The notes under the pieces: model-generated
Database searches by the model: none
Seen by the model: only the letters and a program-made list of their open reading frames with translations
Told to the model about the DNA's origin: nothing
Assembly (NCBI GenBank): GCA_963514005.1
Contig: OY740811.1
Location: 27,466,001-27,530,000 of the forward strand
DNA: 64,000 nt
Direction of reading: 5' to 3'
Origin: Raja brachyura
Taxonomy: Eukaryota
Translations under genes and position numbers: made by a program
Shown here: in pieces, positions 15,629 to 57,689 of the stretch
Layout of the letters: every line of letters starts with the position of its first letter
Numbering within the stretch: position 1 is the stretch's first letter

Positions 15629-15636
15629 ACTGTTTT

Positions 15637-21600: not shown

Positions 21601-22607
21601 CCTCTTTCCTTTCACTGAAATTCATTGTCATAATTTGGTGATTGCTGGCAGGACTGTATCTACTGTGCATGAACATTGGCCCAGAAAAGCAGCCATGCAT
21701 GGCATTCATGAGCCACAAACAGTTTCAATGCAGCCAAGTACCCTTGCTGGATTAGTTCAGAAGGGAGGTGACTCTCAGTCACATGGCAATTTTGTTTAGT
21801 TTAGTTTATTGTCACGTATACCGAGGTACAGTGAAAAGCTTTCACTATACACACATGTGGGACTGGAGTCACCTGTGTGTTCAGACCAGATGAGGCCAAC
21901 ACACACCTTCCCCTACAGACAATAATGAAACAGTTTGGTGTTTTGGGTGTCTTAACACATTCACGGTTACTTTTGCTGTTTCTGCGTTTCAAATCAAATT
22001 ATGAAAATGCCTGTGTCGCGGAACCTGTACTGTACAGACAACAGCCATTGAGCCTCTCGTGTCTAGGTCAGACCCTGGTCTCTTGGTCTGTCTGCATTGC
22101 TCTGCAAAGCATTTCCCCTCAAATGCCTATCGAATTCTTTTTTCGGGCACTGATTAATTTTATTTCCATCACTAATTTAGATCATAACTAAAGAAGCTTA
22201 CATATCCTTTGTTACTTTTCCCAAGTTTTCACATCTATGCCCCTGGGCTTTGAACTGCCGGTAAGTGACAATGGGAACAACTTCTCTCTTTTGTCATGAC
22301 CTAACCCAGTCCTGATTTTGTACACTTCTATTAAGTTCCAGGCCTCCCGTTCTAAACACCAAGTTGATGCACAAATTTGAGACACCAATTATAAGCTCCA
22401 ACCAGAACTAGAGCTATTCAACCAAAAATACCAATTGGTACAGCTTGCAAGATAGATACTACAACTGGAGACCAGAGACACCAAATCAAGGCACTGTCCA
22501 GAGGGAGTTACCAAATAATTTGCCTGGAGACAACAGTTGTGTGCATCGCTGAATCTGTCCTTAATCAAGGGCTAGACGTAACCAAATGTGATCTTACATA
22601 TTTAGTG

Positions 22608-22703
22608 TATGTAGATAAAAATATTGGAGAAACTCAGCTGGTGAGGCAGCATCTATGGAGCGAAGGAATAGGTGATGTATCGGGTCGAGACCCTTCTTCA
22701 GCT
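22608..22703 (-). mobile_element. 96-bp solo PLE-derived hammerhead element with a 14-bp TSD
   Basis: ttacatatttagtg at 22594-22607 and 22704-22717; the core is mutated (GAUAC instead of GAAAC). Confidence 0.88.
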
Positions 22704-24101
22704 TTACATATTTAGTGCATCAGAGACATTGAGCGAGGTCCAGATCACACCTAACTATAATGCCTTCATTGGTTGAATAGCTCCTACTGGAGTCTAGACT
22801 CTCAGACACACAGAGACATGATATTCATAAACCTGCTTCAATGTTTTAAAAACACCTAAAGTGGCTCTCATTGTCAGTTAAAATAAATTTTAAGGAGTGG
22901 CTTAAAGGTGAAGAGTTAGATATAGAGTTAAACTTTAGGGAGGAAATTTCAAAATGTAAAGCCTCAGAAACTCCAATAAAGGAGGGATAAAAATCAGCAG
23001 TTATCTTGGGAGTGTTTTGGGCTGGTGGAACCTGCAGAGAATGGACGAGGCAGGGGAGTGAGGGATGAGGATTGAGGCAGCACCAATGCTGCGGGACTTG
23101 TGTTCCCTTGAAATGAATAGAAGCAAAATCAATCCACCTTTTGTTTTAAACGGTGCCAATCTGTTCTCTCCAAAACAGATAGGGTTCTTTCACAAAATAC
23201 ACACCGTTTGAGAAGTGTAATTTGCAAAGAAAGTTTCCAAAACTTTTGTTGCATGCAAATGTATTTTAAAAAGAATTGTTCACGTTCTACCTCAGTTAAT
23301 TTAGGAATATATAAAAGCTGAAGATCAAGGAAAGCCAGCCAGCCATCAATGAAGCTTTCCCCTCCCCCCACCACCGCCTCCTGTCCCCCACAGAAGAGGA
23401 ATGGGAACAGTGAGAGGGCCCACAGCTGGTCAGTCCCTGCTGCTGAGCCCACAGTTCACCTCATTGATACATTAAGTTGGTGTAAAAGTCTGAACAAATT
23501 ACTGATTTGCAACACTCAGAGAAGGACCGTTTACCGCCTTTGTTTGTGTGAAAATCTCACGTGGAAATGAATCTGCTGACAGTCGCTGGCAAACTCACTG
23601 AAAAGCATAAAATGGGAAATTTTCTGCCCGTAAGTGGCATGAGCTAATGTCCATGTTTGAGCCACTGGACCATGCTGCTCGTTAGTGCAACGGGCTCTGT
23701 GATCTCACCGGGTATCTGACTTCTTAATTAGTGCAGAATTGTGACACAAAGGAGTTGTGATTTACTCTCCCTCGAAGGCTCAGTGGGTACATGCACTGTC
23801 CTCCTCTCAATCGAGCGAATGTAGGTCCCAGCACAACCATGTTCTATGCCTATCACCACAAAAAGGCCGATGGGGGTGCAGTGAATCAGTTTCATCGTTT
23901 GCTGGGCTAATCAGGCTTGGTTCCCATTCCAGATTATTACCCAGAGAATGCCTGCTGCCAGATCATCTTGTGGACAACAAGCAGTCTTGGCTGAGACAGC
24001 AAAATCAGTTCAATTACCTTTTGCCTGTTGCCCGTAAAAATTGGGCACTGGGGAGAGATAGGAGAGGACATCTAAAACAATTCAGGAAACAACCTGTACC
24101 C

Positions 24102-24268
24102 CAGGGAGAGTCGGCACTTGCAGGTCTGGATCCCCTGGCCAGTCAGCACCTTCAGGGGCAGGTAACTGGGCCTCAGGGATTATCAGCACCTTCAGGGGAG
24201 GGGGTCGGGACGCCAGGAAGAGTCAGAACCGTCAAGGGCAGGTAACTGGCCTCCATGGAGAGTCAGTA
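24102..24268. repeat. Degenerate minisatellite, unit about 41 bp, about 4 units
   Basis: Recurrent agtcagcaccttcaggggcaggtaactgg. Confidence 0.6.
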
Positions 24269-26439
24269 GTTACCATTGCGCGGTAGGATGACCCCGCACA
24301 GTCCCTCTCACCCATCAGTAAGACGATCTCTCCGGGAGGCCTCTGCCTGGCTGCGGTTTGTTGACATAAACTCTTCATTGGTAAAATAATCTGGCCGCGC
24401 GTTTTTTCTACAGTTACCCTTGTGCTTAATCATACTTTTCGAATTGTCCGACCCCAGAATGTGTGTTTGTGCTGCAGGAAGGCGGGAGCCGCGCCGGGCC
24501 TGGTCGGGCCTCGGGCCTACCCGGCACCGACCCGGGACACCCGCCACCCGGCCGCGGGGTGGAAACTAAACGACGGATCAAGTTGGATAAAAAACGAGAG
24601 AGGAAGAACAAAATTTAAAAATGAGCTCGGAGCAATTTAAACGCCGCCGACGACGACGACATCCCCAGGCGCAGACACCGCCTCCATGACACATTCCGCG
24701 TTCGCCCGTGGGGAGAGGCGGGCCTTGGTTTTCCTCTGACATTCAGCATCTCCTCAGCACCACTTTATAGACTCACCCTTCCCACTTCAGTTCCTACACG
24801 ATGACCGGGCGGCGGCGGCGGCAGGCAGCGCTCACGGGGCCGGGCCGGGGTGCGCCAACAAGATGGCGCCGCAGAATAGGCCAAGGCCAGCAGCCACTCG
24901 CAGGCGTCGTTGCTCCCCTCCTCTGTGAGCTTCCACTGTACCCGCGTGTGGACGGACTGCTCGCAAAACAAGTCGGGGTACACGTGGGATCCAGCAGCAA
25001 GCGTTTACTGGCCTTAACCAGAACTTACTGTGACACAACCAGGTAAAGATAGACACAACCAGGTAAAGATAGACATACAGTGCACAAAACCGCCAGTTTT
25101 GGTTGCCACCACCTCATAAATAATAAAATGGGGTTAGTGTAGAATTTGGTATAAATGTATGCTTGATGGTTAGCGTGACCTGTGTGGACCAAGAGCCTGT
25201 TTCTGTGGTGTGTGGCACTGTTTATAAAGGATTATGTGGGTGCAAGCACATCCGTCATTGGAGACGCAAGAAACTGCAGATGCTGGAATCTGTAATCAGG
25301 CTTTGTTATCTGGGCATGTGTCTGAGCAGAATGTGGCTTGGTTTTCCCTATTGAGAAACAGGTGGGGACAGACCTGGGATCAAGAGAGATTCTTGATCAT
25401 GAAAGGCTTAGAATTGCCTCTCCCTGTTTTTTTAAGTGCCTGTATGGGTTATTGAGTGACATTTTGATTCTCGACTTACCCAGTCGCGCAGGCAACTTTC
25501 CTTAGTTGACTGTACAGCCAGAAACTATTCACTTCCTCTTTGAAAGTCGTTGTACACTCCCTCTTTAACCTGAACATGGACTGCCTTAAACAACATGTCC
25601 AACTGTCATCCTTCACGCCAGGCCATTTTCATTTTCTTTAAGAATATGCTCGGTACATTAGTGAACGGTGATGCTGACTTTGGAAGATGAAGATCCTTTT
25701 TGGTGCAAAATAAAGGGAAAATATATCACTGCTGAAATAGCTCCAAAGCTTTGAACTGTTGATACCGTAAGGGCAAAATGTAAATTCAGAAGGGGATGGG
25801 ACAGGCAGCAAGAAGAAGAAATGGGTGATGTTTCGGGTTGAGTCCCTTCTTCAGACTGATGGACAGTCTCATAAGTGTTCTCAGGACAGGTCATTCACAT
25901 AATATATTGTGGAACCAACAACAATAGAATTTCACCTTCAGTTTGAGAATGAGAAATGTAACTAATAACTTCATCTTTACCAAAGGCTGCCAAAAGGTAA
26001 GAAGACATAATTGATTGGTGGGAAAATAGATTAGATGGTAAAGCGGTGGATAAGCAATGCAAACATTTAAGGTGTTATATCATAATACTCAAGCTATGTT
26101 TCATGACGGCAGGTACGGGATACTGAGTTGGATGATCAGCCATGATATTATTGAATGGCGGTGCAAGCTTGAAGGGCCGAATGGCCTACTCCTGCACCTA
26201 ATTTCTATGTTTCTATGACTAACTTAGAAAGTATGAAATCAAACTAAATGAAAGTGCGCACAAGGTTGCAAAGATTAGTGATACACCGGAAACTGAGGAA
26301 ACTAGCATGGGATGACCAAATAAATAGCAAAGAGATTATAAGAGTTAGCCATTAAGTATAAGAAAAGATAGCAAGAACTTCCAGAAGTTTATAAAAGGGA
26401 AGAGAGTAACTAAAGTAGATATTGGTTTCTTATAGTCAA

Positions 26440-26735
26440 AGATACAGCACAAATACAGGCCCCTTGGCCCACTGAGTATTTATCAACCTGCAAGTGTCCT
26501 TTGCATTAATCCCATTCTTAATTCTCCGCACATTCTCATCAACACCCCACATTCTACCACTCACCCAAGGGATAATTTGCAAAGGCCAATTAAATCACCA
26601 TCTTTGGGAGGAGGAAACCTACGCGGTCACAGGAAGAATGTGCAAAGTCCATACAGACAGTAATCAAGATCAGTATTCAACCTAGGTCTCTGCCATTGTA
26701 AACCAGAGGTTCCACTGGCTTTGCCACTGTGCTGT
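26440..26735 (-). mobile_element. HE1-like V-SINE, degraded
   Basis: ggaaacctacgcggtcacaggaagaatgtgcaaagtccatacagacag is the reverse-complement V-domain. Confidence 0.7.
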
Positions 26736-26899
26736 CCACTCCTAGAGGAGGAGTTGAATTAATAATGGGAAATAAGGAAAGTTAGTGATATGGAACTAAT
26801 ATTTTTTATCTGTCCTCTTGCCAGATGACATTTGAAGTATCCCAATTAAAATAGTAAAATCTGGGGGCGGGGGGTGGGGCATAATAACTATTAGTGGAG

Positions 26900-28190
26900 T
26901 AAATACAAGGGAAACCAAAGGGATTAATGGCTGACAGGAGGCTAGTATTCCAGAGTATTAAAACGAGTAGTGCGGAAAAAGTGGGTGCAGTGGTTGTGTT
27001 CTTCCAAAATATTCTCAATTTTGAACGGATTGGAAAACTGAAAATGTAATGTCTCCATTGAATAGGGTCGAGGAGCTGAAACCAGGAAACTCTAGCCAGT
27101 TAGGCTAACATCTATCACTGGGAAAATGCTGGAATCCATTATCAAGGAAATAGTAGAAGAATGTTTAGAAAAATGATAACACTATCAAGCAGAGTCAACA
27201 TGGTTTTATAAAAGGAAAGTCTATTACAAATCTTTGAGGATGTAATGAATAGGTGGATAAAAGGGAACAGTAGATGTAGTATATTTGAATTTCCAAAAGA
27301 TAATCAGCAATGTGGCATTTGAAAGATAAGAGCTTATTGCACTGGGGGGTAATGTATTATTGTGGAGAGAGATTGGCTAACCAAGAAAAACAGATAGATG
27401 GTTAAATGATTATTTTTATGTTGGAAGCTGCACCTTGTGGGGTGCTGCAGGGATTAGTGTTGGGCCACAGATATTTATTACAATCTGCATTTATGATAGA
27501 TGAAGGAACTGAGTTTATTATTGCTAAATTTACTAACAACACTGTGATAGATGGGAGAACAAAGTTGTTCGAAGGGTACAAAGAAACAGCAAAGGGTTTT
27601 TGCCTGGTTACATGAGTGGGCAAAACATTGGCTGATTAAATATAATGTGGGATATGAAATTATTCATTTTTGTAGGTGGATTGGGAAAGCAGAATGTTGT
27701 TTTAAGTGGAATGAGACCAAAGGAAGGAACTGAAGGAAAGGGATCTTGGTAAGACACAGGAAATTTGTTTGTCCATACAATAAGTTCTTTGGAAGTATTG
27801 GCCATTATTTCAAGGAGGTTGGATGATAAAAATAGGGATGTCTTTTTACACCTCTACAGAGCGAGTCCATACCTGAAGTACTGCATACAGTTCTAGTCTT
27901 ATTTAAAGAGGGATATGCTTTCAGTTCAGGGAAGATTCACAAGGTTGACTTCTGGGATGAAGGTACTTACATAAAAGGAAATGTTTGGGCAGGTTGTGCC
28001 AATAATAACTGAAGTTTAAGTGAATGAGAGCTGAACATATTCAAATGTATATGATTCTGTGGGATCTGACAGGGTGGGAGGACCCACCAAGGAATTTGGA
28101 ACTAGGAGGCAAAGTATAAGGACAAACATTTGCCTATTTAAGATGGAGATGAAGAAGAATTTCTTCTCGCAGTTTTTGGAACTTAGATAG
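26900..28190 (+). mobile_element. Old CR1 LINE ORF2/RT, heavily mutated
   Basis: Remnants of NYRPVSLTS..GKMLESII, VDVVYL.FQK, GV.QG.VLG, AKF..D and LYR...RP.LEYC.QF motifs. Confidence 0.75.
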
Positions 28191-28730
28191 ACAAACGTTT
28201 AGAAAAATAGAAAATAGGAGAAGGCTATTCAAGCTACTTCAATGATTTGACTCAATCATGACTGATCATCCATTTCACTCCTCCATTCTTGCCTTCCCCC
28301 CCCCCCATATGTTTGATCTCTTTGCATGAAGAATTATATCAACTTTCTTTCTGAATATGTTTAATACATTTTGGGCTGAAAAGTTGAGGTGATGCCAAGG
28401 TCTGATCAGCCATGATGATTTTGAATGGCAGGACAGGATCGATTGGCCAGTTCCTTCTTCAATTTTTCATGTTCCATCTTCACCATAGCACACACAGAAA
28501 CCTTGGAATTTATTCAGACTAAAAAAAAAGACACAAAGTGCAGATGTAACTTAGTGGGTCAGGCTGCATCTCTGGAGAACATGGATAGGCAACGTTTTGT
28601 GACCCTTCTTCAGAATGATTGTGTATTTGGAGATTTGGAAGGAGGAGGCGGGGCAAAGCCTGGCAAGTGATAGGTAGATACAGGTAAAGAGGGTTTGATT
28701 GGCAGATGGTTGGATAAAGAACAGAGATTA

Positions 28731-29790
28731 AAACATAGAAGAATAGGTGCAGGAGTAGGCCAGGACCGCCATTCAATATGATCAAGGCTGATCATCTAAA
28801 ATCAGTATCCCATTCCTGCTTTTTCCCCATATCCCTTGATTCCTTTAGGCTTAAAAGCTAAATCTAACTCCCTCTTGAAAACATCCAGTGACTTGGCCTC
28901 CACTGCCTTCTGTGGCAGAGAATTCCACAGATTCATAACTCTCTGGGTGAAAATGTTTTTCCTCATCTCAGTCCTAAATGGCCTACCCCTTATTCTTAAA
29001 CTGTGCACCCTGTCTCTGGACTCTCCCAACATCAGGAAAATTTTTCTGCATCTAGTCTGTCCAATCCTTTAAGAATTTTATGTTCTTAAAGCCCTCGGGA
29101 AAAAGATACCGCAGCATAAGGAGCAGAACATCAAGGTTCTGCAACAGCTTCTTCCCACGAGCCATCAGACTCCTGAATGCCATGTAATAGGCTGCCACTA
29201 GTGTCTATTTATCCTTTTCACCCATGCCTATCCTTCGGTTAATTTATTGTGTTGCACAGGGAGCCAAATGCAACGTAATTTCGTTTGGAACTGCATGTAT
29301 CAATGTATTTCTAAATGACAATAAAGTTTGTTTGACTTTGACTTTGACTTGTTTCTATAAGATGATCTCTCAACTTTCTAAATTCCAGTGAATCCAAGCC
29401 CAGTCGACCCATTCTTTCATAATATGTCAGTCCCGCCTTCCCGGGAATTAACCTGGTGAACCTACGCTGCACTCGCTCAATAGCAATAATGTCCTTCCTC
29501 AAATTAGGAGACTAAAATTGCACATAATACTCCAGGTGCGGTCTCACCAGGGCTCTGTTCAACTGCAGTAGGACCTCCTAGCTCCTAAGCTAAAAACCTC
29601 ACGCAATGAAGGTCAACATGCCATTAGCTTTCTTTACTTCCTGCTGTACCTGCATGTTTACCTTCAGTGACTGATAGACAAGCACACCCAGGTTTTGTTG
29701 CACCTCGTTTTTTCCTAATCTGACACCATTCAGATAATAATCTGTCTTCCTGCTCTTGCCACCAAAGTGGATAACTCACATTTATCCACA
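28731..29790 (-). mobile_element. CR1 LINE 3' 800 bp inserted in the PLE
   Basis: ORFs 29311-29502 (RKDIIAIERVQRRFTRLIPG) and 28802-29032 (HSLRIRGRPFRTEMRKNIFTQRVMNLWNSLP). Confidence 0.9.
29087..29350 (+). mobile_element. Rex1/Babar 3' end nested inside the CR1
   Basis: GKRYRSIRSRTSRFCNSFFPRAIRLLN, then AATAAA and a (GACTTT)n tail. Confidence 0.85.
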
Positions 29791-35449: not shown

Positions 35450-35910
35450 AGTACCTGGGATGTACCCCAGCTTCTGAAGCCAGGTATAACCAGGGTACGC
35501 CCAGGTTCATTGTACAGTGAATATCAGGTTCATTGTACAGGGTATACCCCAAGTTCAGGGTACAGGCTATACCAAGGGTACAGCGTATACCCAGCTTCAG
35601 GGTACAGGGTGTACTCATGGTACAGGGTATACGCAGGTTCAGGTCACAGGTTATAACCCATGTTCAGGGTACAGGATATACCCAGGTTCAGTGTACAGGG
35701 TATACCCAGGTTCAGTATACAGGGTATACCCAGATTCCGTGTACAGGGTATACCCAGGTTCAGTATACAGGGTACACCAGGTACCGTGTACAGGGTATAC
35801 CCACGTACAGGGTATGTCCCAGGTTCTGTGCAGGTATATCCAGGTACAGTGTACAGGCCATGTTCAGGGTACAGAGTATACCCAGACTCAGTGCCCGGAG
35901 TATATACTGG
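35450..35910. repeat. 24-bp minisatellite containing the palindrome GGGTATACCC
   Basis: Consensus gggtatacccaggttcagtgtaca; palindrome at 35698, 35722 and 35746 (period 24); about 18-19 degenerate units. Confidence 0.85.
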
Positions 35911-40284: not shown

Positions 40285-40663
40285 CAGTCTGAAGAGTGTG
40301 TCCGAGCCCAGGACATTCAGTTCTAGACCAGTTTGCAGAGTGTATCAGAGCCCAGGACACTAATTTCAGACTCAGTCTGCAGAATTAATCAGAGCCCAGG
40401 ATGCTCAGTACTGCATCAGTCTGCAGATTGTATCAGAGCCCAGGTTGCTCAGTACTAGAGTAGTCTGCTGTGTATCAGAGCCCAGAACACTCAGTACAGA
40501 CTCAGTCTGCAGAGTCTATCAGAGCCCAGACCACTCAGTACTAAACCAGTCTGCAGGGTGTATCAGAGCCCAGACCACTCAGTACTAAACCAGTCTGCAG
40601 AGTGTATCAGAGCCCTGGTCAATCAGTATTGAATGTGGCTGCAGCAGTATATCAAAGCCCAGG
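40285..40663. repeat. 44-bp minisatellite, about 8.5 units
   Basis: cagtctgcagagtgtatcagagcccagaccactcagtactaaac starting at 40503, 40547 and 40591; more diverged at the flanks. Confidence 0.88.
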
Positions 40664-42559
40664 AAAGGAGATGAGCCGCAAAATATCACTGGCCCAGCAC
40701 AGTGAGAATTACAATCTGATATCATTACACCAGGCCTGTCAGAGTTTCATTGCAATTTCAATGCAAAATGTAAGGGTAAAATTCCCATTATCAGAGCCCA
40801 GGCCACTAAATACATAAGCGCGGGCCAGTCCCCAATCCAGTTGGTGGGCAGGATGGGACCAGAGTTCCAGATGAGTGGAGCTCCTCCAGAAGGAGCAGCC
40901 TAGGGTTCTGACCCTCTCTGCTACACGGACCAGCCCATAATGTTGGGGCATTCACCACAGGGTGGTCAGTCAGACCCAGCTGCTGGATGTTTTCAGGTAA
41001 TGACATCCGTTGTGGATATTAATGAGAAATGTACGCACGCATACAACAACATAGGTGAAGCCTACTTCTAGACTCACAGAATAGTGCATTGCTGGTACAG
41101 GCCCTATAGCTCACAATGCTGGTTCTGACCATGATGCCAATTTAAACTGCACATCTGCCTGCAGGTGATCTGTATCCCTCCATCCATGCCACCTGACAAA
41201 ATACTTCCCACCTTTCATCTGTAAATTGAACTAAATTATTTTAAAAAATCTGCTTCTCTTATGTTTGGTCCCTTTTTATTGAATCTGAATTCTTCTCTCT
41301 TTTCTTATAAATATTTAGGGGCCAACTTGGTTACCACTCCCATTTTATAAAATACATCAAAACACACTGAAAAACAGTAGCAAGTGGAATATCACACTCT
41401 AGGTTACAAAAAAGTAAATAAATTGTGGGAAGGAGTGCATAGTTTAACCTGCAGGAATGTTGAGGAATGAAACGGGAAGGAAGGAGGAAGCGATTGAGAA
41501 AGATAGAGACTTGCAGTGATGAGCAATAAATGTGTATTTAAAATTTACAGGCCTACATCACTTCCATCTGCAATGGACATCACGCAGTTGCAATTCTCAG
41601 TATACTACAGTAAACAGAATATGTTATTAATATCCCACTTCACTTAAATGATGTTGGCGTTCTTGAAATTATATAATGTTAAAGCTGCATGCAATCAAGC
41701 AGTGACTATGGCAATCGGCACTCTCCTTACTGCCCTGGCTTCTTGCTTTCGTTATAAATTCTAAATATTTTCCATTCTTAATCCCTTGGATTATCAGTGG
41801 TCATCCTGCGAAATATCAGCACTGAAGTGTTCCACGTTAGCCCTCATGGTGAATCAAATTCACAGTTCAAAAGTTCACAGGATTTCTAAGACTGAGAAAT
41901 CACAGGTAAAACTTGGCAGCTAATTCACACTTTCCAATATATCCTAATGGGTGTCTCCTGGAACCTGGTCTACTACAAGTGATAGTTTGCTCCTGTTTCT
42001 GTCAAACTAAAATGAGTGTGCTGTTTACATGCTGATAGTCTACATTCATTGCTATTCTATTAACTCCACGCTGTGGTATTTTGATTGTACATGCAGTTGC
42101 ACTCTGTGCTTTGTATGCTGAATGGTGCTTCTGATTGTATGTGTTCCTGACCCTATTATTACGTAATATGCATTGATGCTTTTTACAGCCATGTTAATCT
42201 GTCTATAATCCCATCTGTGTCTGAAACTGTTTTGGCCATGTATTATGCTCACTGCCAGAGACAAGTGTTTCTGACAGGTTTACTTTATCCTCGGCTCACC
42301 TGTAGCCCACATCTAGCTTATGCCTTCCCAGAAGGAACTCTCACACTGGATCCTATCCTCGGCCTTTATCCACTCTGCCCCCCTCCCCCCCCCCCCCCCC
42401 CACCCCATCCCGCACACCACCATCTGGTCTAGGATGCATCTTTTCATAAAGGTCACGATCATCAACGGAACAAAAATTAAATATTGTGTCCTATGTATGA
42501 CGTTACATGATGTGCAGATTGAGGAGCCTTTATATTAAATGTAGACTGATTTATTATTT

Positions 42560-43548: not shown

Positions 43549-45690
43549 CATGTTCATCTGCAGCCGGGCCTCCTCGTCACCTGCACACTTAACTTTAAGG
43601 CCGGTGCTTTTGGAAATACTTTGTGTTGTTGTTAATTTCATGTAAAAGCCGCCTCCGTCAACTTTCCCTTTAAATACAACCATGATCGACCGAACAAAGA
43701 CCAGCCACTTGTTCCTTTTACGGATCCATTATGCAAAACCCGGCCGTGCACAGGAGCATTGGTCACCGCCACGCTTCCCCTCGGCGACCCTTTCCCAGTC
43801 TCGCCCTCCCCCGCAGTCACTGTTTAATTAAAGGCTGATTATACACTGGGTTGCTGCCGACACCCGGAGCCTGTTATCCAGGTGCGACTCCCCAAAGGCA
43901 GAGAAATTACAGAGCAAGTGCAAATAAGTGGAGTTTACATCCAATCGGCTTCAAACTCCGAGGAGCCGCCGCCAAATCCCCGCGCAGCGATGCCAATCCA
44001 GCCAAAGAGGACCAAGTTAACTGGGAAAACAAACAGCGCTTCACAGAACTCTCAGCAGTCTTCCCTCAAACGGGCAACAGATTTCCACCGCAGGGAGAAT
44101 TTGTGAATCTGACTTTGCCGACATTGGACATTGTCTCTGGAACTGATGCGCTTCAATGCCGAGAACTATACACTGTTTTAGACACAAAATGTTGAAACTC
44201 ACTCCAGCTTTTTGTGTCTATCTTCGGTTCAAACCAGCATCTGCAGTCTCTTTCTACACACTTAAAAACAAATCAGAGTTATATGTACTTCTTATCCCAT
44301 TCTTTAGCATGAATGCGATAATCAGTTCTGTTTACTATAAGTTTAAGAAGGAACTGCAGATGCTGGAAAATCGAAGGTAGTTTCAATATTAAGTGGGAAC
44401 GATCCAATCTGTATCAAAGGACTGTCCCAGTTCTACACAATTTAGGGATTTTAAAGTGGGAATATCAGAATTATTTAATGTCAAAAGAACCAGACGGACA
44501 CCTTTAGCCCATTCCGGACATTGGACTTTATCTCAATGCTGAGAACTATATTGTCGGCTCTTTATCTACCCCTTTGCTCGATCTACTGTACACGAGTTTG
44601 GCATGATTGTATTTAAGTGTGCTATCATCTCACCCGATTGGGCAGCATGCAAAACGAAGTTTTTCCCTGTACCTCGGTACATGTGCCAATAATAAACCTC
44701 ACCAGGGCCGGAACATAGAGCCTAAAACAGCAAGTTGGTGACAGTGGAGCTACTGACACACACGCCGACACTCCCGCACCAGCCCGCTCGTGTCACAGTG
44801 CCTGCAGGCAGGACAAAACAACATAGGGGCTCCTCGTCAGGCAAGGGCCTTGCAGGCGGGGTACGGGAGAGACGGGGTTTCTGGGGAAGAGGGGTTGGGG
44901 ATGGGGCAATTCTTCCATCAATAACTAGCCAAACATTCTAGAAAGGAACATGGTGTTAAAGTGAAGCTGTAGTGTCGGAGATGGTCGTTTCCGACAGTGC
45001 TGCAACATTCGCCAAGGCGGCACCCGGGCTGCTTGGTCTAATCCTCTCCCAGTTCAATTTAGTGTAAATGCCGTGAACCCGGGAGGGAGTGTTCATCAGT
45101 TCAAAGAAAGCCGCGGGTAGACTGGCTGATTAAAGGGCAAAGGGTCCACTTGGAAATTGTACACATTCTCAGCACAGCCCCTGGTTCAACAGGTTGGATT
45201 ATATTCCACACTAGTCCGCCCACCCCATCCCCATATCTCCCAACGAGTCCTTTCTCCTCAATATCTGAATCAGAACCAGCTCCCCTATAAATTGTGACAC
45301 TGTTAACTGTTGACGGTGGAAGCATCAGTAAACCACAAAGTGCTGGAGTAACTCAGCGGGTCAGACAGCATCTGGGGAGGGAATGCACAGATGACGTTTA
45401 GACTGTCTGAAGAAGAATCCGGAGCCGAACGGACGTTGTCTGTCCATTCCTCCCTTCCACACTGCACACATTAAACAACTTTGGATCAATTGGTGTTGAT
45501 CGCCGCTCCCATCCCCATGTGGGACCACTCCACCTCTACTCCAGCGAGTCTCCTCATTATAATGGTGTTGTTCACTTCTAGTTTTCTCTGCTGGGTAATG
45601 TAAATATATTGACCGAGTTAAACGAGAATCATCACCCATTTCCAAGTTCGGGCAGTTGTAATGTTGCATTGTTATCAAACCGAAAACTCA

Positions 45691-45837
45691 ATCGGGAATC
45701 ACTCCAACCCGCCCCACTCCATCAGGAATCACTCCAACCCGCCCCACTCCATCGGGAATCACTCCAACCCGCCCCACTCCATCGGGAATCACTCCAACCC
45801 GCCCCACTCCATCGGGAATCACTCCAACCCGTCCCAC
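45691..45837. repeat. 30-bp near-perfect minisatellite, about 4.9 units
   Basis: atcgggaatcactccaacccgccccactcc at 45691, 45721, 45751, 45781 and 45811. Confidence 0.95.
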
Positions 45838-47836
45838 CGGAGAAAGCGAATCTGCAAATTGTCCTTGGCCGTAGTTTCTTTTTATTAAACGAGCATCTAA
45901 CAAAGGTTTCGAATCGGTGATAACTATAATAGTGGATGGTTCCATTTTTGTGCGGTAGACATGGGTCTAGAAACATACAGAGAGAGAGAGAGAGAGAGAA
46001 CGACACGGAAAGTGAGGAATGGAGCGGGCACAGTTGTGCTGAAGAAGCCGAGTTACTCCAGCACTCTGTGTCTTGTTTGTAAACCAGCATCTGCAATTCC
46101 TTGTGTCTACAATCTATGCTCGAGTGACTCAATGGATCGGGCAGCATCTCTGTTAAATGATAGGTTTGACCAAGTTCTTTGTATTTTCTGCTTCTTTTTT
46201 TTCAGATTCCGAGAACTTTCGGATGAATCGGTGGGGCTTCTGCCCCGCTCACTAATCTCCTGCATCCAGGGCTCAAAGATCTTTCGCATTTGGCCTGGGT
46301 CTAACTAACGGGAGCGGCTTCACTTCACCAGATATCCATATCGGTAACCAGTTATGTATAAGCATTAGACCTAGTCTGCGGGATTTGCCGAGTGAATGAT
46401 GCATGTGTCTCAGCTTTTACTCCGGCCAGCCCTCGCCGCTTTCTCCTTTGTGCAATCACCAGCTTTTGTTAGATAATCAGTCGCCTGATGGGATGAGGAA
46501 TAGATAAAGATTCTTGGCATCTGGCGGCTAAAATGAAAGGGGGATTAGGTACCGGCCGCTGCACACTCCATGGCACATGGGCTTGCTATTCCCCTCATTC
46601 AGGATACCATTGATTATATCCAACCCTCCGTGTTTCGTTACATCTCTCCGAGATGTTTGTATTCGCCGGACAATTCGCCGGACAAAACAAAAAGCTAATA
46701 GCTCTGGTGCATGTGAACTACTGAGACCCTTAAAGGGGCAGTCCCATCGCTCCCCGCAGTGGCTATCATTTAGTTGAACAGTGAAATAGGAACGGTGCTT
46801 GTTTAGTTTAGAGATACAGCAGGGAAACTGACCATTTGGCCCACCGTGTCCACGCCATTTCGGCCCACCATCGATCACTCGTTCACACTAGTTCTAAGTT
46901 ACCCCACTTTCTCACCCACTGTCGCTTTCCTCCCACATTAGGGGCACCGGCCCCTGAAATATCTGCATCTAGTATAGGCCATTTGCAGCACACAATTGAA
47001 ATAGTTCCTGCAGTGTGTGATGTGGGGATAAGGTGTAGCCTGGAATGGTGCCCATAGGACAACAACTGTCCATTTTACCCCGGGCTCTGCAAAAGCTGTT
47101 AACGTTAATAATCAGGAAAAAGTTATAGGCACGTGGAGACTTTTGAGTTAATAAAGGAGATTGGTTAAAGGCAAATAATGTTTGACTGAGGAAGGTTCTG
47201 AAGAGGTAATGGACAAGGTTGGTTCAGGACATGTGGTTATTATAATTTTGTTTGAGAGAATCCACACAAAGGCTGGTTTGGGAAATGACACCTGTGACCT
47301 CAGGATCAGTGGCTGCATGAATATGAAATTGGCAAAGCGACAAAAGTTAAGAATCATGGTGATCTTCAGAAATGAAGATGATAGATGTGCTATTCCCCAG
47401 GGATCTATGCCAGGACAAATGCTTTTGTTTCAACCTAAAGTAATGACTGGGAGGAGGTAACATTTCAGAATTTGCATGACAGTAATACACTGCAAAAGAC
47501 CACGGCTAAACTGGCACAACAAAGAGAGGTGATATACTTTAACAGGAAGAACAAACACAGAACAGTGGATAATGCTACTACCCCACAGCCCCAGTGACAC
47601 AGATTAATTGTTGACATTGGGCACTACTGTAAATTCCCTCCCCAATATGCAAGTAAATGGTAAAATAAATTCTAAAAAGTTGGAAATTAATTGGCAGCAA
47701 TAACATGCAATGCCATGAGAAAATAAGACAATGGGGAATTGGACGAGAGGTTTTTCTGTTAGGAAACAACATGAATTTAATGATCCAAATGGTCTTTTGT
47801 AATAAATAAGTGTGTGACATTGACTTAAGCAATATT

Positions 47837-48035
47837 ACCCCTCTCCACCCCCTCCTCTCCCTGCTCCCTCACTCCTCACCTCTCCCCTATCGCACTTACC
47901 CACTAAACACAATGTTTAAATAAGCGGGGGAGGGGAGGAGGAGAAATTTTATTTAAACATTGTGTTTAGTGGGTAAGTGCGATAGGGGAGAGGTGAGGAG
48001 TGAGGGAGCAGGGAGAGGAGGGGGTGGAGAGGGGT
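47837..48035. repeat. Perfect 87-bp inverted repeat with a 25-nt spacer
   Basis: 47837-47923 is the exact reverse complement of 47949-48035. Confidence 0.92.
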
Positions 48036-48299
48036 TATGGATGGAGGGAGGGAGTGACTGAGGGTAGGGAGTGACTGAGGATAGGGTAAAGGTGAAGGAG
48101 GGAATGGAGGAGGAGAGGGGAAAGAAGAGGGATGGTGAAGAGGAGGGGGAGGGAGTGTATGAGCCACGCCTGCGCGGTTGGGCCCTATGGGTGAGTGATG
48201 GATATTGTGTTGGGGGAACAGGTTGCGTTGGGGGAACGTGTGAGTGGTGGAATATTGCATTGGGTGAACGGGGCCCAACAAGTACCACTTGGTTTAGTT

Positions 48300-48770
48300 A
48301 TTTATAAAACTCTCATTGGACCACAGTTAAAGTGTTGCAATCAATTTTGGTTATCGCATTTTAGGAAAACTCCAGCGATTATGTTAATAAAGATTTGTTA
48401 AGAATATTTCCAATGAAGAGGGATTTCCACCACAAAGTTAGAATCTGGGATTGGCTACGCAAAAATCCTTGAGCAGAAAACGTTCAGAGGAGTACCAAAT
48501 TGTAGCCGATTTAGAAATGGTAACCAGAGAGAAGTTGCCCCAATTAGCAGATGGCATAAGGACTTGGGACCAGTTATGAGTAAACAATACTGGGTGAGGA
48601 GCGTTGTGTGGCAGAACTGGTTTGCACAGAATGTAGATGAGGTAGAAGGTAGAACTCACAGCCTTGAAAGCCAGTGGAAATAATCCATGATCAAAGGGAT
48701 ATTATTAGGCAGAAGAAATGAAAAAATGTAAGAGATAGAGCAGAGGGGTGGAACTAACTGGGTTCCTCCA
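48300..48770 (+). mobile_element. Old CR1 3' fragment
   Basis: YKTLIGPQLKCCNQFWLSHFRK resembles the CR1 motif LYKTLVRPQLEYCVQFWSP. Confidence 0.65.
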
Positions 48771-51609
48771 TAAAGAGTGGACAAAGAATTGGTGGACTAG
48801 TAACGATTCTGAAGTCTGTCAAACTGAGATACACCATTTATTTTGTGGAAGCTTTAGTTCAGGATTAGAATTGTCAGGTGTAGAGAGGTACAGTTTTGCA
48901 TGCTATCCTGTCTGATCAAATAATACAATACATAAACACACTCAAGCCAAACACTCGTGCAATAGGTAGAGCAAAGAGGAAGATACAGATTGCAGAATAT
49001 AGTTCTCAGCATTGTCATACACCAGTTCTAGAGACAAAGTCCAATGTCCACAATGGGATAGATGTGTGGGACTGGTTCCTTTGACGTAAAGAATTCTGAT
49101 ATTCTCACATTTTAAAAACTGAGATATTCCCCAAATATTATAGAAATAGGACAGTCCTTACAAGGTACAGAATGGATATAGTTCCCAATTACCATAACAA
49201 ATAAATGATTCTTATACTATACAGAACTGAGTATCTCATTCTATTCGAGTATCTAAAGAATGGGATAAATAGTACATCAAACTCTGATACAATAAAAAAC
49301 AGTGTATAGAACTTGGAAATTAGATATAGAATTAGGATAACTTTAAAACCAATAGACTTAGATATTTTCTGCAATGCATATTGCTGCCATTGTTCTTACT
49401 GTGTATAAAAAATAGAGTTATCCCTTGTTTGGAACTGCAGAATCATTAAAAAAAACAGTGGACTTGCAAAAGATTAGGGGTCCAAGTACATAAATATATA
49501 AAGGATGTGTTAAAAAATTAATCACAAATGAATGATGCCTTTTTTATATTAACGACGGGAGAACAGGGACCGGTGGGGGTGGAAGTTCTGACACTCATAA
49601 GATCAGATCTGGTGAACATTGCTCAAAGGCACAACCTGCATTTATTTCAAAGTTCCAGCATCTATTCATTCACAGATTGATTCAGGAGGATTTATTGGCC
49701 TTGGCAAGTGTGCACCCTGAATTTGTAAAACTATACCTGGACTCCAGGGTGCAGTTAGCACGAGAAACTATAGAAACAATATACGTTCAATTGAGTACGT
49801 TTAGTGGTAATCAGAGTAAAGTTTCAATTGAGCATAAGCATAGACTGATGGAAACTAATTTTGGGGAGTGTGTGACTGGGAACATTGTCAAAATAACAGA
49901 TCCAAACCTTTGAGGTTTGAAGCTGGGCTATACTTCTAAGAGCAGATTGAGGTAGAAGATTAGAAATCTCTTGTACAAATGATAGTCAATGCTGGGTCAA
50001 TTGCCCATCTTAAATCTGGAATTAAATTGTTTTTTGTTAATAGAAGGCATTAGGAAATAAGATGGATATGTAGAGTTAAGTCACTAATCAGCTGTGATCT
50101 GACTGAGGAACAAGCTTGAGGGATAATCGGTCTCCTTCTGTTCCTACATTCCCTGTTTGTGTGCTTTGATTGTCCCTGTTATGAATTGAACTCTGGACCT
50201 ATTACAGTATGTAGATATTTTCTACAATGTTTAAAGCTGTCTTAGCTTTTGTATATTGGATGTCCCCATAGAGCATAGAACTGGGATATTCCTACAATAT
50301 CTAGATCTGGAATAGATGCTGCAGGATGTGAAACTGTGGAGTTCCTGCAGAATATTTAGCAGAGATTGCCCCTGTAGCATACGGATCTGAGGTAGTCCTA
50401 ATGCTGTTCTGCACTGCACATTTACGGGTTTAGTAGAGCCCTCTGTGTCTGGAGCTAAACAGTTCATACAGAGTGCAAGACCAGGAAAGTTCCTAAATTG
50501 TGTAAGACTGAACATGTATAAGTGTTTAGGAAACTGCAATCATTCCCACAGTTTACAAAAGTGGGATTGTTCCAATGTAATAGAATATGTTTCCCTGGTC
50601 CTGAGAACTGGAATTATCACCATTCTCTGCATTACTGTGGTTGGATTCAGTGAATGAAGCTAATATTCATTCAGTTTGTAGAATTGGAATGGTTCATTGA
50701 GTGTGTGGAAGTTACACATCGCTCGTAAAACTGGGATATGGTGTCGCAGGCAGATGTGGAAGTGGGTTTATCCCTGTATTATATTGAATTGGGATTACTG
50801 CTGCAACATTTTGAACTGTGTAGATCAGGAGAAGCCCTGAAGTATAAATAATTCTGAATCTCGCAGCATGTACAGATGGGATAGATTTCAATGTATGTAA
50901 GAACGGAAGAGCTCCCATACTGCAATAAAAAGACCACACAGATTATAAAACTATGTAAACTGCAATAGTCCTTACAGTATATAACACTAGGTTGGTTGCT
51001 ACATTTTGAAAGAGTTTTAGAACTGAAAGGGTTAAGGGTGTACGTGCAGAGGAGGAACTTTAACAATTTCATAAAATAGTTATCTCCACATTTGCAAAAT
51101 GAGTTGGGCATTTAAAACTGGGATAATTTCAATTAATCTCACCCTGAAAGAACCAGATTGAGATTGCCCCAGTAGTGTGTGCAATAGTGTACAGCGCTGA
51201 GTTAATACAGTCTGGAAAGCTATATAAATTCTGGACTGCAATGTCCACACAATGTGAACATGCTGTTCGAATAGTTCATGCATCTGGCACAATCTGTACA
51301 AAGTCCAGAATTAACCGAAGGACCCTGGAGTGTTTAGAAATAGGTTTATGTAATGGGTGCAGTTCCTCCATGACTTGGATTTGGTACAGTGCCGTCATTA
51401 TAGACAACACATGTGTTCTCTCTGCTTATGAAGCAAGTATGGTCCATCCACCATAGGACAGGTGCTACTTCTCCACACTATTGTAATGGTATGTTATGTC
51501 CATTTTATGGAATAGGGTGCAATTCTTACACTACGGACCCGGGGAGGATATATATCCTCCTCTGCTACATGGATATGTAGTCATCCGGATATTGGTCAGT
51601 TGTAGTCCC

Positions 51610-52605
51610 TCCAACGCATAGAACACATTCGCCAACATTTCTGCCAAATTCAACGTGATCCCACCAAATGTCCCTGCCCCACCCCTTTCTGTGTTTCTGT
51701 AGAGACCACTCTCTTTATAACTCCTTAATTCGCTCATCCCTTCCCACCTAACATACACCCTTCTCCATGTAGTTTCCTCAACACGTGTCCCTACACCTCC
51801 TCTCCCACCTCCATCCAGAGACCCCCACCATCACTTCCAGATGAGACGTAGGTCCACGTGCACCTCCCCCAACCTTGTCTATTGCATTCAGTGCTCCCAA
51901 TGTGTCCTTTACATTGGCGAGACCAACCGTAGACTGGGCGACCGATTCGCTGAAAGCTTGCACGTTGTCTGTCAAGGCCTACTCGCTCCACCGGTTGCTA
52001 ACCGTGTTCTCAATCCCACGCCGGCCTCCTCCTCTGCCAGCGAGAGGCCACACACAAACTGGAGGAACCGCACCCTCATATTCCGTTTACGTAGCTTACA
52101 ACCCAATGGTATGAACATTGAATTCTCCAATTCAAGTAATACCCATTGACACCTCCTCTCTTTCCCCTCTTCCTCACTTCCCCCCACCCCCATACCAATG
52201 CGCAAACATCTCTCCCACCACCCCAGTAACTCATCGCCAAGTCCCATATTTCATTTCATCTCTTTCCCCTCCCCTGTACCGTTTCACTCCTATCCCTCCC
52301 TCTGGCTTTACATTTCACCCTTCCCTCATCTCTCCATATCTGACACCTTTTTATCTTCTTTTGCTCTGTAGCCTTTGTCACTTATTCCACCCATCAGCCA
52401 ATTAAACCCCACCCCCCTCACTTGAGTCCAACTATCACTTGTCAAACTCTGTCCTACTCCCTCTCTCTTTTGTAGCTTTCTCCGCCCTTTTCCATCAGTC
52501 TGAAGAGACGTAAAGACCCGAAACGGCGCCTGTCCGTCCATTCCGTTCACCGATGCTGCTTGACCCGCTGAGTTCCTCCAGCACTTTGTGTTTTGCTTAC
52601 ACAAC
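51610..52605 (+). mobile_element. Penelope-like retroelement (Neptune-type) 3' part: linker, GIY-YIG endonuclease pseudogene and terminal repeat with a decayed hammerhead
   Basis: ORF 51841-52149: TCTSPNLVYCIQCSQCVLYIGETNRRLGDRFAE...LIFRLRSLQPNGMNIEFSN (VY..YIG.T.R...RF). Upstream NTCPYTSS linker. Downstream cagtctgaagagacgtaaagacccgaaacggc at 52496-52527 plus the family body. Confidence 0.9.
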
Positions 52606-53794
52606 AATGTTGCGTTTACCGCAGTAGCGGGCATTGTCCCTCAACTATATGGAGATGTTTGTCCCCTCTCCTTTATAGAAATGCCATTCTACGAGATGCG
52701 CAGGTCGCTACTCTGTGGTGCTGAAGTAGTCCTTGCTTCAAGACCGTGCGCAGTGTAGAACTAGTAGAGTGAGTTGAGCCGAGGTGGTGACTGGAGTACC
52801 TGCAACTGGGATATCCCCTGCATTATTTATCACCTGAAAATTCCCCATAGCTTTGAGAAGCGGCATGTTCCCTGCAGTGTGCAGGCTGTGTGGAAGCGGT
52901 CTGTGATACCCTTCAGACCAGCGGAGATGGTCAATGTTTAAAACGCGTTCCTCCAATCGGAGTCAAGCGATCATCTCACTTCCTCAATCCGTGCCAATTT
53001 TTGGTGTGCCGGCCCCGGCCCACAGAGGCGGGGAACCGCCAGTGGAGACGGTGCAGACAGGCAGGCGGTTCGTCCGTTAGAAATGGGACTGGTGAGGCGA
53101 CGGGTGGCACTGAGTCAGGAGGCAGGAGCCAAGGAGACACAGGGAACTGCAGATGTTGGAATCTTGAGCAAAACACAAAGAGTTGGAGGAACTCAGCGGG
53201 ATATAGGCGGCATTGCGGGTCGGGACCCTTCTTCGGACTGATGGCGTTGGGGGGGGGGGGGGGGAGCTGGAACAAAGCCTGGCAAGTGATAGGTAGATAC
53301 ACGTGAGGGGGGAGCGGAACCCTCTCCCTGCTTATTAAAGCCATTCGGACACCCAGCCCGTTTACGCCGGCCCCCGGAGGAGTGGATGCCAACAGAGGGG
53401 GGCCCGCAGGAGGCGAGCAGAGGCGGTGTCTCCCCAAATTTCAGAGCCTTGTTCCCGCAGCTGACTAGCATCCCGACGCAAACAGCGCCGCTGAAGAGCC
53501 CGGGGAGCCGGCGCTGACTTCAGCTCAGTCGCACTTTACAGGAAGGCGTGTTTCCTGCAGCTACTTGCGACGGCTGGAAACCGGTTAGGAGGCGGATGTA
53601 TTTGGCGGAGAGTAAATCAGGTTCTTGGACATGTCTCCGTAAACAGAGACAGTGGCGTCTGTTACCGGAGCCGCTGTCCCACCCGGTCTCACACTCCACG
53701 CTCCTTGCTTCCTTGGACACGTTTCATCGGCTTCAGACGAACACTTTGTGACAACTTTACCGACTGCCACAAATCCGATGTATTTTGTACTTTT

Positions 53795-53970
53795 TAAAAA
53801 ACTGGAGGAATTCAGCAGGTCAGGCAGCATCTCTGGAGAACATGGAGAGGTGGCGTTCGGGTCGGGTCCGAAAAAGGGTCCCGATTCGAAATATCACCCA
53901 TCTATCTATGTTCTCTAGAGATGTTGCCTGACCCGCTGAGTTGCTCCAGCACTTTGTGTCTTTTTTTTCC
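53795..53970. mobile_element. Older inverted pair of PLE-derived elements
   Basis: ctggaggaattcagcaggtcaggcagcatctctggagaacat...atgttctctagagatgttgcctgacccgctgagttgctccag, imperfect palindrome. Confidence 0.75.
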
Positions 53971-55224
53971 TCCCTACAAGATCGTTGCTGGGGTTGACAG
54001 GGTGGGTGCAGGGATGATGCTCTTGGCCGGAATCTCCAGAACAGGAAATCAAAACCGAGGTGCGAATGTTTCTTAATGAATCTTTGGAATTCTCCACCCA
54101 AGGCCCCGTGGATCTCAGTTGCCGAGTATAGTCGAGGCAGAGAATGCTCATTGTTTTGTAATACGAAGGGACTCTGGGATGTGGGGTTAGTGCAAGAAAG
54201 TGGTGCCGAGCTAATGGTTCAAGCGCGATCATATTGAATGGCTGAACAGGCACAGGCGGCTTCCAGTTCTGAACCATCCAGGAATGCAGTGAGATTCCTG
54301 AATCACTCCAGCACACAGCTATTATGTGCGAATGGCAAACAAAACACAGATCCCACCAACCTACCCATCACGTTCTCCTGAAGAAGGGTTTCGGCCCGAA
54401 TCGTCGCCTATTTCCTTCGCTCCATAGATGCTGCTGCACCCGTTGAGTTTCTCCAACATTTTTGTCTCCCTTCGATTTTCCAGCATCTGGATCCTGACTC
54501 AGTCACCTCAGCACCCACAGAATCACAGTGGGAAGTGTTACCATTACCCCCACATATTCCCCACACAAGACCAATATATAGTTCACTTTCTTATGTGAGT
54601 TGTTTGACCTACATTTTTTTCCTCACCCCCCCCCCCCCCAGTATTTTGTATTTTTATATGAATTCCTTGTATATCCTTCCTATATCTTGTGTAAATATAC
54701 CATGGAATCTGTCCACATCGTTCTTCATTCTCTACATATTCACCAGCATCGGCCGTGCCTTGTTTCTCTCCGTGTTTTGCACTCTATGTCTGTTGCAGAG
54801 AACAAGTCCGAGCGCTCCGCTGCCGCTGGCGAACCACCAATTGATTGAAACTTCTCGCCTGCAGCCGCTGACAGACCGCGGCGAGTCACATGCTCTTTAT
54901 TAATTAACCAGCAAGTTGATAAACAAAGGCCGCTCCGGACGCGGGACATTCATGCAGATATCAGCAGCGTCAGTTTCGGAAAACTTCCCTTTATTTTCGT
55001 TCGTGAAATCTCTCCCATTGTAGATTTGAGGCTGTTCCCCGATCTCAGTTCACGTACTCAGCTTCTTATAAGAGTCTCGACTTGATTGTATTTATGTATA
55101 GTATTGACATTAGATTGGATCGCAGGCAAAACAAAGCTTTTCATTGTACTTCGGTACACGTGACAATAATAGACCCAAACCCAAATCAGATTCACTCCGA
55201 TAAAGTTGGATTCCTGCACACTGG

Positions 55225-55405
55225 ATGGATTTAAGAGAGTTGGATAAAGCTCTAGGGGCTAGTGGAGTCAAGGGATATGGGGAGAAGGCAGGCAGGCACG
55301 GGTTATTGATCGTGGACGACCAGCCATGATCACAATGAATGGCGGTGCTGGCTCGAAGGGCCGAGTGGCCTCCTCCTGCACCTATTTTCTATGTTTCTAT
55401 GTTTC
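55225..55405 (+). mobile_element. CR1 LINE 3' end
   Basis: ggctcgaagggccgagtggcctcctcctgcacctattttctatgtttctatgtttc. Confidence 0.8.
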
Positions 55406-55747
55406 ACACTGCTGGACTAAATTCGTCTGATACTTCTTTGGAGTTTGAAATATAGGAAGGGTGATCTTATCTAAATAACTTAGGGGTCATGGCTGGATGA
55501 ATGTTGAGTTCATTCTGCAAATGGGAAGGTCTTGAGCAAGGAGAGAAACATCGTTATGAGATGTACCTCATTACACGTGACAATGAACTAAGCTAAACTA
55601 AACTAAACTAAGATGGTGATCTCTGAAAACGGAGGCGTACAGGAACCTCTTGCATTTGAATCTCTGGGATTTGGAGCCCCAGAGGTTTGTGGAGATTATT
55701 GGAGAAGGTTGATAGATAATCGTTTTGAAGCACCAAAGAACTGACCA

Positions 55748-55977
55748 TAGACACTAAATGCTGGAGTAACTCAGCGGGTGAGGCAGCATCTCTGGATAGA
55801 AGGAATGGGCGACGTTTTCGGGTCGAGACCCTTCTTCACAGACGTTCTTCAGAGAAGGTCCCGACCCAAAACATCACCCATTCCTTCCCTCCAGAGATGC
55901 TGCCTCACCCGCAGAGTTACTCCAGCATTTTGTGTCTACCTTCGATATAAACCAGCATCTGTAGTTCTTTCTTACAC
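55748..55977 (+). mobile_element. Inverted PLE terminal-repeat pair plus tail (diverged)
   Basis: Arms at about 55748-55838 and 55851-55938, tail to 55977; same architecture as 15535-15767. Confidence 0.82.
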
Positions 55978-56665
55978 TAAGACTGAGGGCGATGTGAAAC
56001 TGGCATAGAACTGACATAGAAAATAAGATGAGGCCAAGGGCAGATCAGCACGATTATATTCAATGGAGGGGATTAAGGGGGAGGTCTGAGAGGCCTATTC
56101 CTGCTCCTATTTTTTTGTATTCTTGTGCGGGATGTTATGGTTGTGGCAGCACATAACCTTGAGTGACTGAGTGTGGTCACAAAGATTTTATTTGCCTGAA
56201 TTGTTGCAATAAGAAACACAAACCTGATCTTATACAGGTTTCCAAGATCAACTCTATCCTGAATTCTCCAAATTCACTGTTAAGCTAAGTGGCCATCTCC
56301 CAGATCAACATACCCAGTCATCAGACCACAGTTACATATTGCTTGCACGCCCAGAACTAGACTCACAACGCAGGCAGTCTGTTCCATGCCCTCTCACAGA
56401 TAGAGATGTCCAGGTGGACAGAGGAGAAGATTCAAGGAACGTGCTCAAAGCCTCCTGGAAAAGAAGAATCCCAAGACACTACCACCAAAGGAGGAGTGTT
56501 GAAGGAGTTATGAGTGCAGCACTGTTGAGGGTGTCTTGAGTCTCTAGTGGGGTGGTCTTTGTCAATTGAGTTAATGGGGAGGGCAGCAATACTGAAGGGT
56601 TGGCAAGTGCAGCAGCATTGAAGTAGGAGCAGGTTTAGCCATGCAAAAGCAACATAATACATTGG

Positions 56666-56761
56666 GGGTTACACAAAAAGCTGGAGAAACTCAGCGGGTG
56701 CAGCAGCATCTAAGGAGCGAAGGAGATAGGCGACGTTTCGGGTCGAGACCCTTCTTCAGAC
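56666..56761 (-). mobile_element. 96-bp solo PLE-derived hammerhead element with a 10-bp TSD; intact core at 56732-56759
   Basis: Identical to 15535-15630; tacattgggg at 56658-56667 and 56765-56774. Confidence 0.9.
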
Positions 56762-57689
56762 CAGTACATTGGGGAATTGATGCAGCTGTGAATGTCAGCA
56801 GTACTGAGCAACTGCAACATTTTGGATGGAGCAGCAAGGGCAGCAATACTGAGTGAGTAGTGGCCGCAGTAGAATCAATGAAGATGTAATATTGCAAAGA
56901 ATTGGAAGCAGGCGAGTAGCAGTATTGAGGGGCCAGACTGTCCTGAGATCTGGGTCTCAGTGATGATTAAGCAATGAGTAGAAAGCTTTGAAGAAGCAAC
57001 AGTGTTGAGAGGGCGAGGAGAGCAGCAGGTGTGAGAAAGTACCCAGAACCACAGAGCTGATGGATGAACGAGTGTAACAGTACATTTTGGAAGAAACTGC
57101 AGATGCTGGAAAATCGAAGGTAGACAAAAATGCTGGAGAAACTTAGCGGGTGAGGCAGCATCTATGGAACGAAGGAAATAGGCAACGCTTCGGGCCGAAA
57201 CCCTTCTTCAGTTGTGAATGCTGCAAGAGTGAGCAGTGTAAAATGAGTGCTTGCACTGGGACTGAGAATGTGACATAACAGTGAACCCTCAATACTGCTG
57301 CACTCACAACATGCTCACACGGTATCACTTGCTGCTCCCATAATAATCCTGCAGTCAATGCTATCCCAGTACCATTGCACTTCATTCTCCACACCACTCA
57401 TTCTTCCCAAGTGCAGCGCTCCCTCCTCACTGCTACTGCAGTGCAGTGGGAGTTGTGGGTGCAGCAATATGGGAGGAGCGTGTTGCACGTAGTCTGGGAA
57501 TGAGGCAGCAATAGAAGGTCTGCACTGCCACATTGCTGCCTTACAAGGTGACGGTCCCAGCATTATATACAATAATTCACTCAAACTCTTCATTCTGGGC
57601 TTCTTTTAAAAAAATTCTAAGCTGAGCTGAATATGGCCATAATGTTCCAAACACCTACATGTCAGGGATGATGGCTGAGCAATATAATT

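Follow-up and report, generated by a model that had tools for sequence, protein, structure and literature searches.

In a 64,000-nt stretch of the genome of the ray Raja brachyura (the window), short inserts of about 96 nt begin and end at nearly the same points of a common repeat, and some of them are bounded by their own TSDs. The question raised by this locus is what defines these ends. A sequence-only reading of the window had proposed that they are mechanistically defined, by an endonuclease nick or priming at the boundary between the repeat and its tail, and that the inserts represent a discrete ultra-short mobile unit. Position 1 of the repeat is here window 15636 (plus strand), the base preceding the CUGAAGA box, and negative values lie upstream. 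A query of positions 1-135 gives 37 matches in the 64,000 nt.

The insert at 22608-22703 (minus strand) is a tail-less solo head of an older subfamily, 78% identical to the young one. It covers about −2 to 95 by sequence match, with TSD-defined ends at −1 and 95, and its 14-bp TSD is exact (22594-22607 and 22704-22717), as had been reported. For a second insert, placed earlier at 56666-56761, the 10-bp TSD is also exact (56658-56667 and 56765-56774), but the insert between the two copies is 56668-56764 (minus strand), a 97-nt tail-less solo of the young subfamily identified by sequence match and TSD. It has three additional bases at the 5′ junction, and its 3′ end overlaps the TSD by 2 bases. 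The identity noted between 56666-56761 and 15535-15630 extends over 96/96 bases and ends at both edges. The latter sequence had been grouped with the solos, whereas it is the tail-less arm (15536-15630, minus strand, sequence match) of a head-to-head insertion spanning 15536-15767, with a 13-bp TSD (15523-15535 and 15768-15780, repeat match). The opposite arm, matching positions 1-131 (15636-15766, plus strand), exceeds its partner by 36 bases, the tail. This tail (positions 96-131; 15731-15766, plus strand) would lie between two RT start sites, as suggested by the end counts given below and by published data (PMC11167929). A tail-only piece had been described at about 44341-44380; it is present and belongs to a sibling subfamily (positions 92-129), but its bounds are 44341-44378 (minus strand) and no TSD of at least 6 bp was found around it. 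Older-subfamily head-to-head pairs are also found at 55743-55977, where one arm is tailed, and at 53786-53966.

Other repeats are present in the window. Two nearly perfect inverted arms of 90 nt around a 25-nt loop (47834-48038) are unrelated to the head and unmatched in the sampled loci. At 8399-9302, inverted ends of 107 nt (91%) flank 690 nt whose interior has 39 matches in the sampled loci, so that some other retroelement has probably inserted here in inverted form. Tandem arrays occur at 35491-35885 (period 24), 40285-40664 (44), and 45686-45837 (30).

The inserts of about 96 nt are the pseudo-LTR (pLTR) heads of an autonomous Penelope-like element (PLE). A 37-nt core of the head occurs 40,640 times without mismatch in the 2.7-Gb assembly, and copies extending upstream enter an ORF which contains RT followed by a C-terminal GIY-YIG domain. 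Pfam returns RVT_1 (E 7.7e-5) and then GIY-YIG (E 5.1e-4), both below the gathering score, and assigns no family to a shorter 420-aa piece. The translation also contains a YIDD motif, two cysteines between GIY and YIG (the cysteine half of a CCHH motif), and, before the endonuclease, a CX4CxxC linker which fits the CX2-5CxxC of Neptune/Nematis. For these groups, the consulted part of PMC8557442 gives linker cysteines and a CCHH motif in which GIY and YIG are separated by a stretch with two cysteines. As judged on its cysteine motifs, the parent would thus fit a Neptune/Nematis-type EN+ PLE.

The layout of the parent is seen at locus L141, a tandem whose 4,038-nt unit consists of head, tail, ATG at +165, ORF, and 3′ UTR, with broken frames. 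In the same locus (reverse strand), the N-terminal half of the ORF includes, at unit positions of about 670-1500, a long stretch which is rich in Pro/Ala/Ser and internally repeated. The same layout is seen in the window at 51781-52591 (plus strand; tblastn E 2e-21), where the decayed 3′ part of a parent-type PLE comprises a GIY-YIG fragment (51817-52131), 3′ UTR, and a tail-less pLTR (52499-52591). Both tandem and inverted pLTRs are found, the former as the 4,038-nt unit and the latter as 35 head-to-head pairs, and the optional tail of 36 nt is within the 30-40 nt given for PLEs. The element shares with the Neptune/Nematis EN+ PLEs, as they appear in the sections seen of PMC8557442, the order of RT and C-terminal GIY-YIG, the cysteine motifs with the CX4CxxC linker, tandem and inverted pLTRs, a hammerhead-like core, and an optional 36-nt tail at one end. 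Half of the ray copies sampled share one 5′ start, and no clustering of this kind was found described in those sections.

The head contains a minimal hammerhead-like core (15637-15664, plus strand), recognized by comparison with the features in PMC4209133 and consisting of CUGANGA, stem II, and GAAA, with predicted cleavage after position 29. The features of a type I minimal hammerhead are present, that is, the CUGANGA and GAAA boxes and an extra base ahead of stem II. Stem II pairs are retained in 39/51 to 49/54 rows. Helix I has just 2 bp (pairs kept in 42/48 and 32/48), short of the 4-5 bp criterion, and a similarly short helix I has been reported for a hammerhead variant of D. virilis. An Rfam scan of the window gave no hammerhead match, the hits being hairpin artefacts below the gathering score. 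A stem between body and tail (50-57/105-112) is conserved; it is invariant and therefore has no covariation support, and the tail-less form is devoid of one of its sides. Consensus folding of 55 diverse copies returned no structure.

The 3′ ends were counted in 100 exact-core matches, those listed for the initial 4.2 Mb of contig C1, a sample which is not a random draw. They fall into two classes, 63 at 90-99 and 32 at 128-137, with 5 between. In a cross-subfamily survey of 206 copies, where the 5′ search reached 20 nt upstream and 3′ ends alone are usable, a close TSD of at least 9 bp was found in 19 copies as compared with 0-3 after swapping flanks; 14 of the 19 end at 88-95 and 5 at 116-137. 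TSDs are present in 7/94 older-subfamily copies. Genome-wide, the junction between tail and body is spanned by only 582 exact copies. Tail-only pieces make up 5/73 of the tail-bearing matches examined.

These two classes match the internal RT starts published for an anole PLE and are already explained in print. In vitro, RT of this element starts at two internal sites flanking the tail, both target strands are nicked and extended, and hammerhead cleavage is dispensable, according to the parts of PMC11167929 available. The proposed priming at the tail boundary agrees with these data. The ray element resembles the anole one (Poseidon PAc) in its two tail-bounding 3′ classes, in the extension of both strands, and in copy ends not set by hammerhead cleavage. 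However, PAc, from which the in vitro data stem, belongs to the Poseidon clade, other than that of the present element. The tail lies inside the ORF in PAc, whereas in the ray it precedes the ATG (+165), and in vitro the two strands do not differ in their start site for PAc, whereas ray inverted insertions pair one site with the other (PMC11167929, as far as seen).

At the opposite end, 50 of the same 100 copies start at −7 to +5 (mode −2), a main cluster spread across about 12 bases, against 2 at −20 to −8 and 8 at +6 to +17. Among the remaining copies, 4 start at +18 to +30 and 36 are scattered farther upstream. The 5′ point is combined with the near 3′ end in 32/100 copies and with the tail in 15/100. 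Half of the copies (50/100) belong to an insertion bounded by its own TSD, where swapped flanks give 1-6. With half of the 5′ ends in one cluster and 95/100 3′ ends in two narrow classes, the endpoints are strongly clustered and not uniform, and the view that they are mechanistically defined and not coincidental is borne out. The supposedly fixed length of 96 nt is approximate, the simple TSD-bounded tail-less solos (10/100) measuring 83-112 nt; by extrapolation, a few thousand of these solos would exist genome-wide. End histograms at the edge of the profile were discarded because the profile itself starts at this boundary. Positions 1-47 have 19,346 exact matches genome-wide, of which 6,063 carry the 13 upstream bases without change; this 31% undercounts upstream-bearing copies, as it leaves out those with a one-base variant or with mutations. 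The start at −7 to +5 is also seen in 10/30 body-bearing rows.

We infer from sequence features that the fixed 5′ point is a capped Pol II transcription start at an initiator. Positions −4 to +3 match the initiator consensus YYANWYY, and its A falls at −2, the modal 5′ end. In 18 older-subfamily heads A−2 is found in 14, G−1 in 13, and T+1 in 17, and the bases farther upstream are variable. The non-templated base preceding the start is G in 1,410 copies genome-wide, A in 828, and T in 483 (G 52% of 2,721). This excess of G is modest, and A too is more frequent than T. Some of the G bases derive from junctions, because 13/30 examined G-preceded copies were flagged beside an inverted arm. An internal promoter with a start inside the pLTR is described for Penelope of D. 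virilis in the portion of PMC2377424 seen; the analogy is loose because the fly start is some 120 nt 5′ of the hammerhead, from which an intron separates it. Contigs from four sequence runs, three of them of uncertain RNA status, show loose ends at −1 to −3 in three runs. Such ends may reflect DNA or subfamily divergence and were left out as support.

It is probable that the inserts arise when RT starts at one of two fixed internal sites of the RNA's 5′ repeat and runs off the 5′ end. The two nicked target strands would each be primed, at different start sites, and synthesis from this repeat to run-off at the capped 5′ end would give products of about 96 or about 131 nt. One product retained would appear as a solo, both products joined as a head-to-head insertion, and a run-off cDNA which jumps to another RNA as a partial tandem. 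In retroviruses, minus-strand strong-stop DNA is a short cDNA which begins internally and extends as far as the RNA 5′ end, and it can jump; in L1 twin priming, both target strands prime. The ray model is target-primed, whereas strong-stop synthesis is tRNA-primed, and it differs from both in that the two ray arms have fixed start sites and are copied from one and the same region.

The head-to-head insertions provide evidence on this pairing of start sites. Among 35 pairs, 22 have a flanking match of at least 10 bp, and 21 of these carry exactly one tail. After removal of one repeat-derived match and one duplicate, exactly one tail is found in 19/20 TSD-bounded insertions, p 2e-6 against independent choice. 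The 13 pairs without TSD carry one tail in 7 cases, none in 4, and two in 2. TSDs were found in 16/20 examined tail-only second arms; a stricter expectation of the model, that such arms stop at the point where the other cDNA began, gives 65 arms against 45 in a control window, which is not significant (p 0.07). At loci L034, L053, and L083 the head-to-head arms overlap at 7 near-palindromic bases (−3 to +4), which could allow two run-off cDNA ends to anneal. Longer inverted insertions, whose arms measure 1-2 kb and whose TSDs are 15-16 bp, were seen at L065 (2847-6686), L086, and L157, and at L065 and L086 the 5′ truncation points are almost equal on both arms.

Half of the rows which span the junction between tail and body (15/30, 12 distinct insertions) consist of a piece which breaks off at 176-759 and, next to it, a new copy whose start lies at −6 to +4. 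Such partial tandems are as expected if run-off cDNA jumps. The junctions at loci L161-L188 (unit positions 176-270) cluster at about 200-209, 227-232, and 260-269, possibly the ends of short pLTR transcripts.

A different account of the 5′ point is a structural stop, in which RT copying a long read-through RNA drops off at the 5′ edge of the hammerhead/tail fold, so that the point would be a hot spot of truncation and not a transcription start. The ends are immediately upstream of the core, head positions 3-12 pair with the end of the tail in the predicted fold of 1-131, and about one-third of copies do extend past the 5′ point, all of which would suit such a stop. However, RT reaches the structure from its 3′ side and should halt before it, not after it. 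The head-tail pairing is kept only partly across the 55 diverse copies, and the G excess and the conserved initiator-like bases are left unexplained. This explanation appears unlikely.

RNA processing could also set the 5′ point, either by some cleavage or by splicing at the CAG, preceded by pyrimidines, which lies just before +1. The 60 nt upstream do resemble a 3′ splice site, and in D. virilis an intron ends where hammerhead helix I begins (PMC4209133, in the part available). Splicing is disfavoured because the 133 head-starting copies have no common first exon: they abut unrelated DNA (76), an antisense arm (41), or scattered sense pieces (16, with 1 GT donor). Moreover, the modal end at −2/−3 is upstream of the putative junction, and CAG is replaced by CAT in a sibling subfamily. 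Cleavage by the hammerhead predicts 5′ ends at position 30, where 1/100 copies was seen, and was rejected as their origin. Altogether, processing is quite improbable as the source of the 5′ point.

Little weight is given to the reading of the 96- or 131-nt unit as a self-propagating non-autonomous element, expressed from an internal promoter and mobilised in trans, which we regard as highly improbable. Its copy number is very high, its TSDs are clean, the solos would retain the internal promoter, and the 131-nt form could serve as a template. Non-autonomous PLE derivatives are known, such as MRC1 (PMC8557442) and the retrozymes (10.64898/2026.07.22.740005), both sources being seen in part. However, solos and ORF-linked copies have their sequence variants in common, which speaks against a discrete ultra-short mobile unit. 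Identity to the L141 pLTR over 2-90 is found in 42/141 head-starting and 24/77 upstream-bearing copies, and common variants occur in both. No solo-specific variant was found in 220 copies, a comparison of low power in a young subfamily. The sole skewed pair (14C>T and 18A>G; 10 vs 0, p 0.016, uncorrected among 25 listed) was rejected as solo-specific, as it marks a sibling subfamily with its own upstream sequence. Tail-less solos also miss half of the 50-57/105-112 stem, and no tandem array of the unit occurs in the window.

Metazoan non-LTR retrozymes are likewise short non-coding relatives of PLE pLTRs with type I hammerhead motifs, but they form head-to-tail arrays with a hammerhead per unit, whereas the ray inserts are single or head-to-head, with ends away from the cleavage site (10.64898/2026.07.22.740005, from the part seen). 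No head-to-tail arrays of short hammerhead units, which define retrozymes, were found in the 64,000-nt window. Single hammerhead motifs are regarded as probable truncated PLEs, and the PLE tail is usually one-ended, in the available parts of several reports (PMC11167929, PMC4209133, PMC2377424, 10.64898/2026.07.22.740005, PMC8557442, PMC3846280, PMC8969392).

Finally, it is hardly tenable that the 5′ ends reflect random truncation or inter-repeat recombination and that the three copies in the window agree by chance: the 36/100 scattered upstream 5′ ends would suit it, and rotifer solo pLTRs without TSD have been ascribed to recombination (PMC3846280, in part), but for the 100-copy sample it is refuted by the end clustering (50 in a 12-base span vs 2 and 8 in the flanking windows) and by the TSDs (50 vs 1-6).

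Under the run-off model, the inserts are likely by-products which record the copying of the element, not a separate mobile unit, and the tail-less solos are likely dead ends. Both the fixed 5′ end and the near-strict pairing of the two start sites seem to be undescribed. In the literature covered (titles, abstract openings, and few subscription papers), neither a fixed 5′ end of PLE solos nor a strong-stop model was found. The ends of genomic copies are plotted in Fig. S2 of PMC11167929, where a 5′ pile-up may be visible.

A simple, testable model of PLE copying follows from the fixed 5′ end together with the paired start sites. As regards annotation, inserts of this kind risk being miscalled as a SINE family, whereas they belong to a PLE. 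The origin of tandem, inverted, and one-tailed PLE insertions has been called undefined (PMC8557442 and PMC2377424, both consulted in part). A broader possibility, plausible but held tentatively, is that PLEs use a coupled two-site, two-strand cycle with a strong stop like that of retroviruses, in which one RT subunit would serve each strand, one at the near and one at the far site. Both subunits would run off the capped 5′ end, and their products would be kept singly, joined, or transferred by jumping. If this is true, such a cycle would explain the inverted and one-tailed architecture of PLEs, and tens of thousands of natural products would stand as its record.
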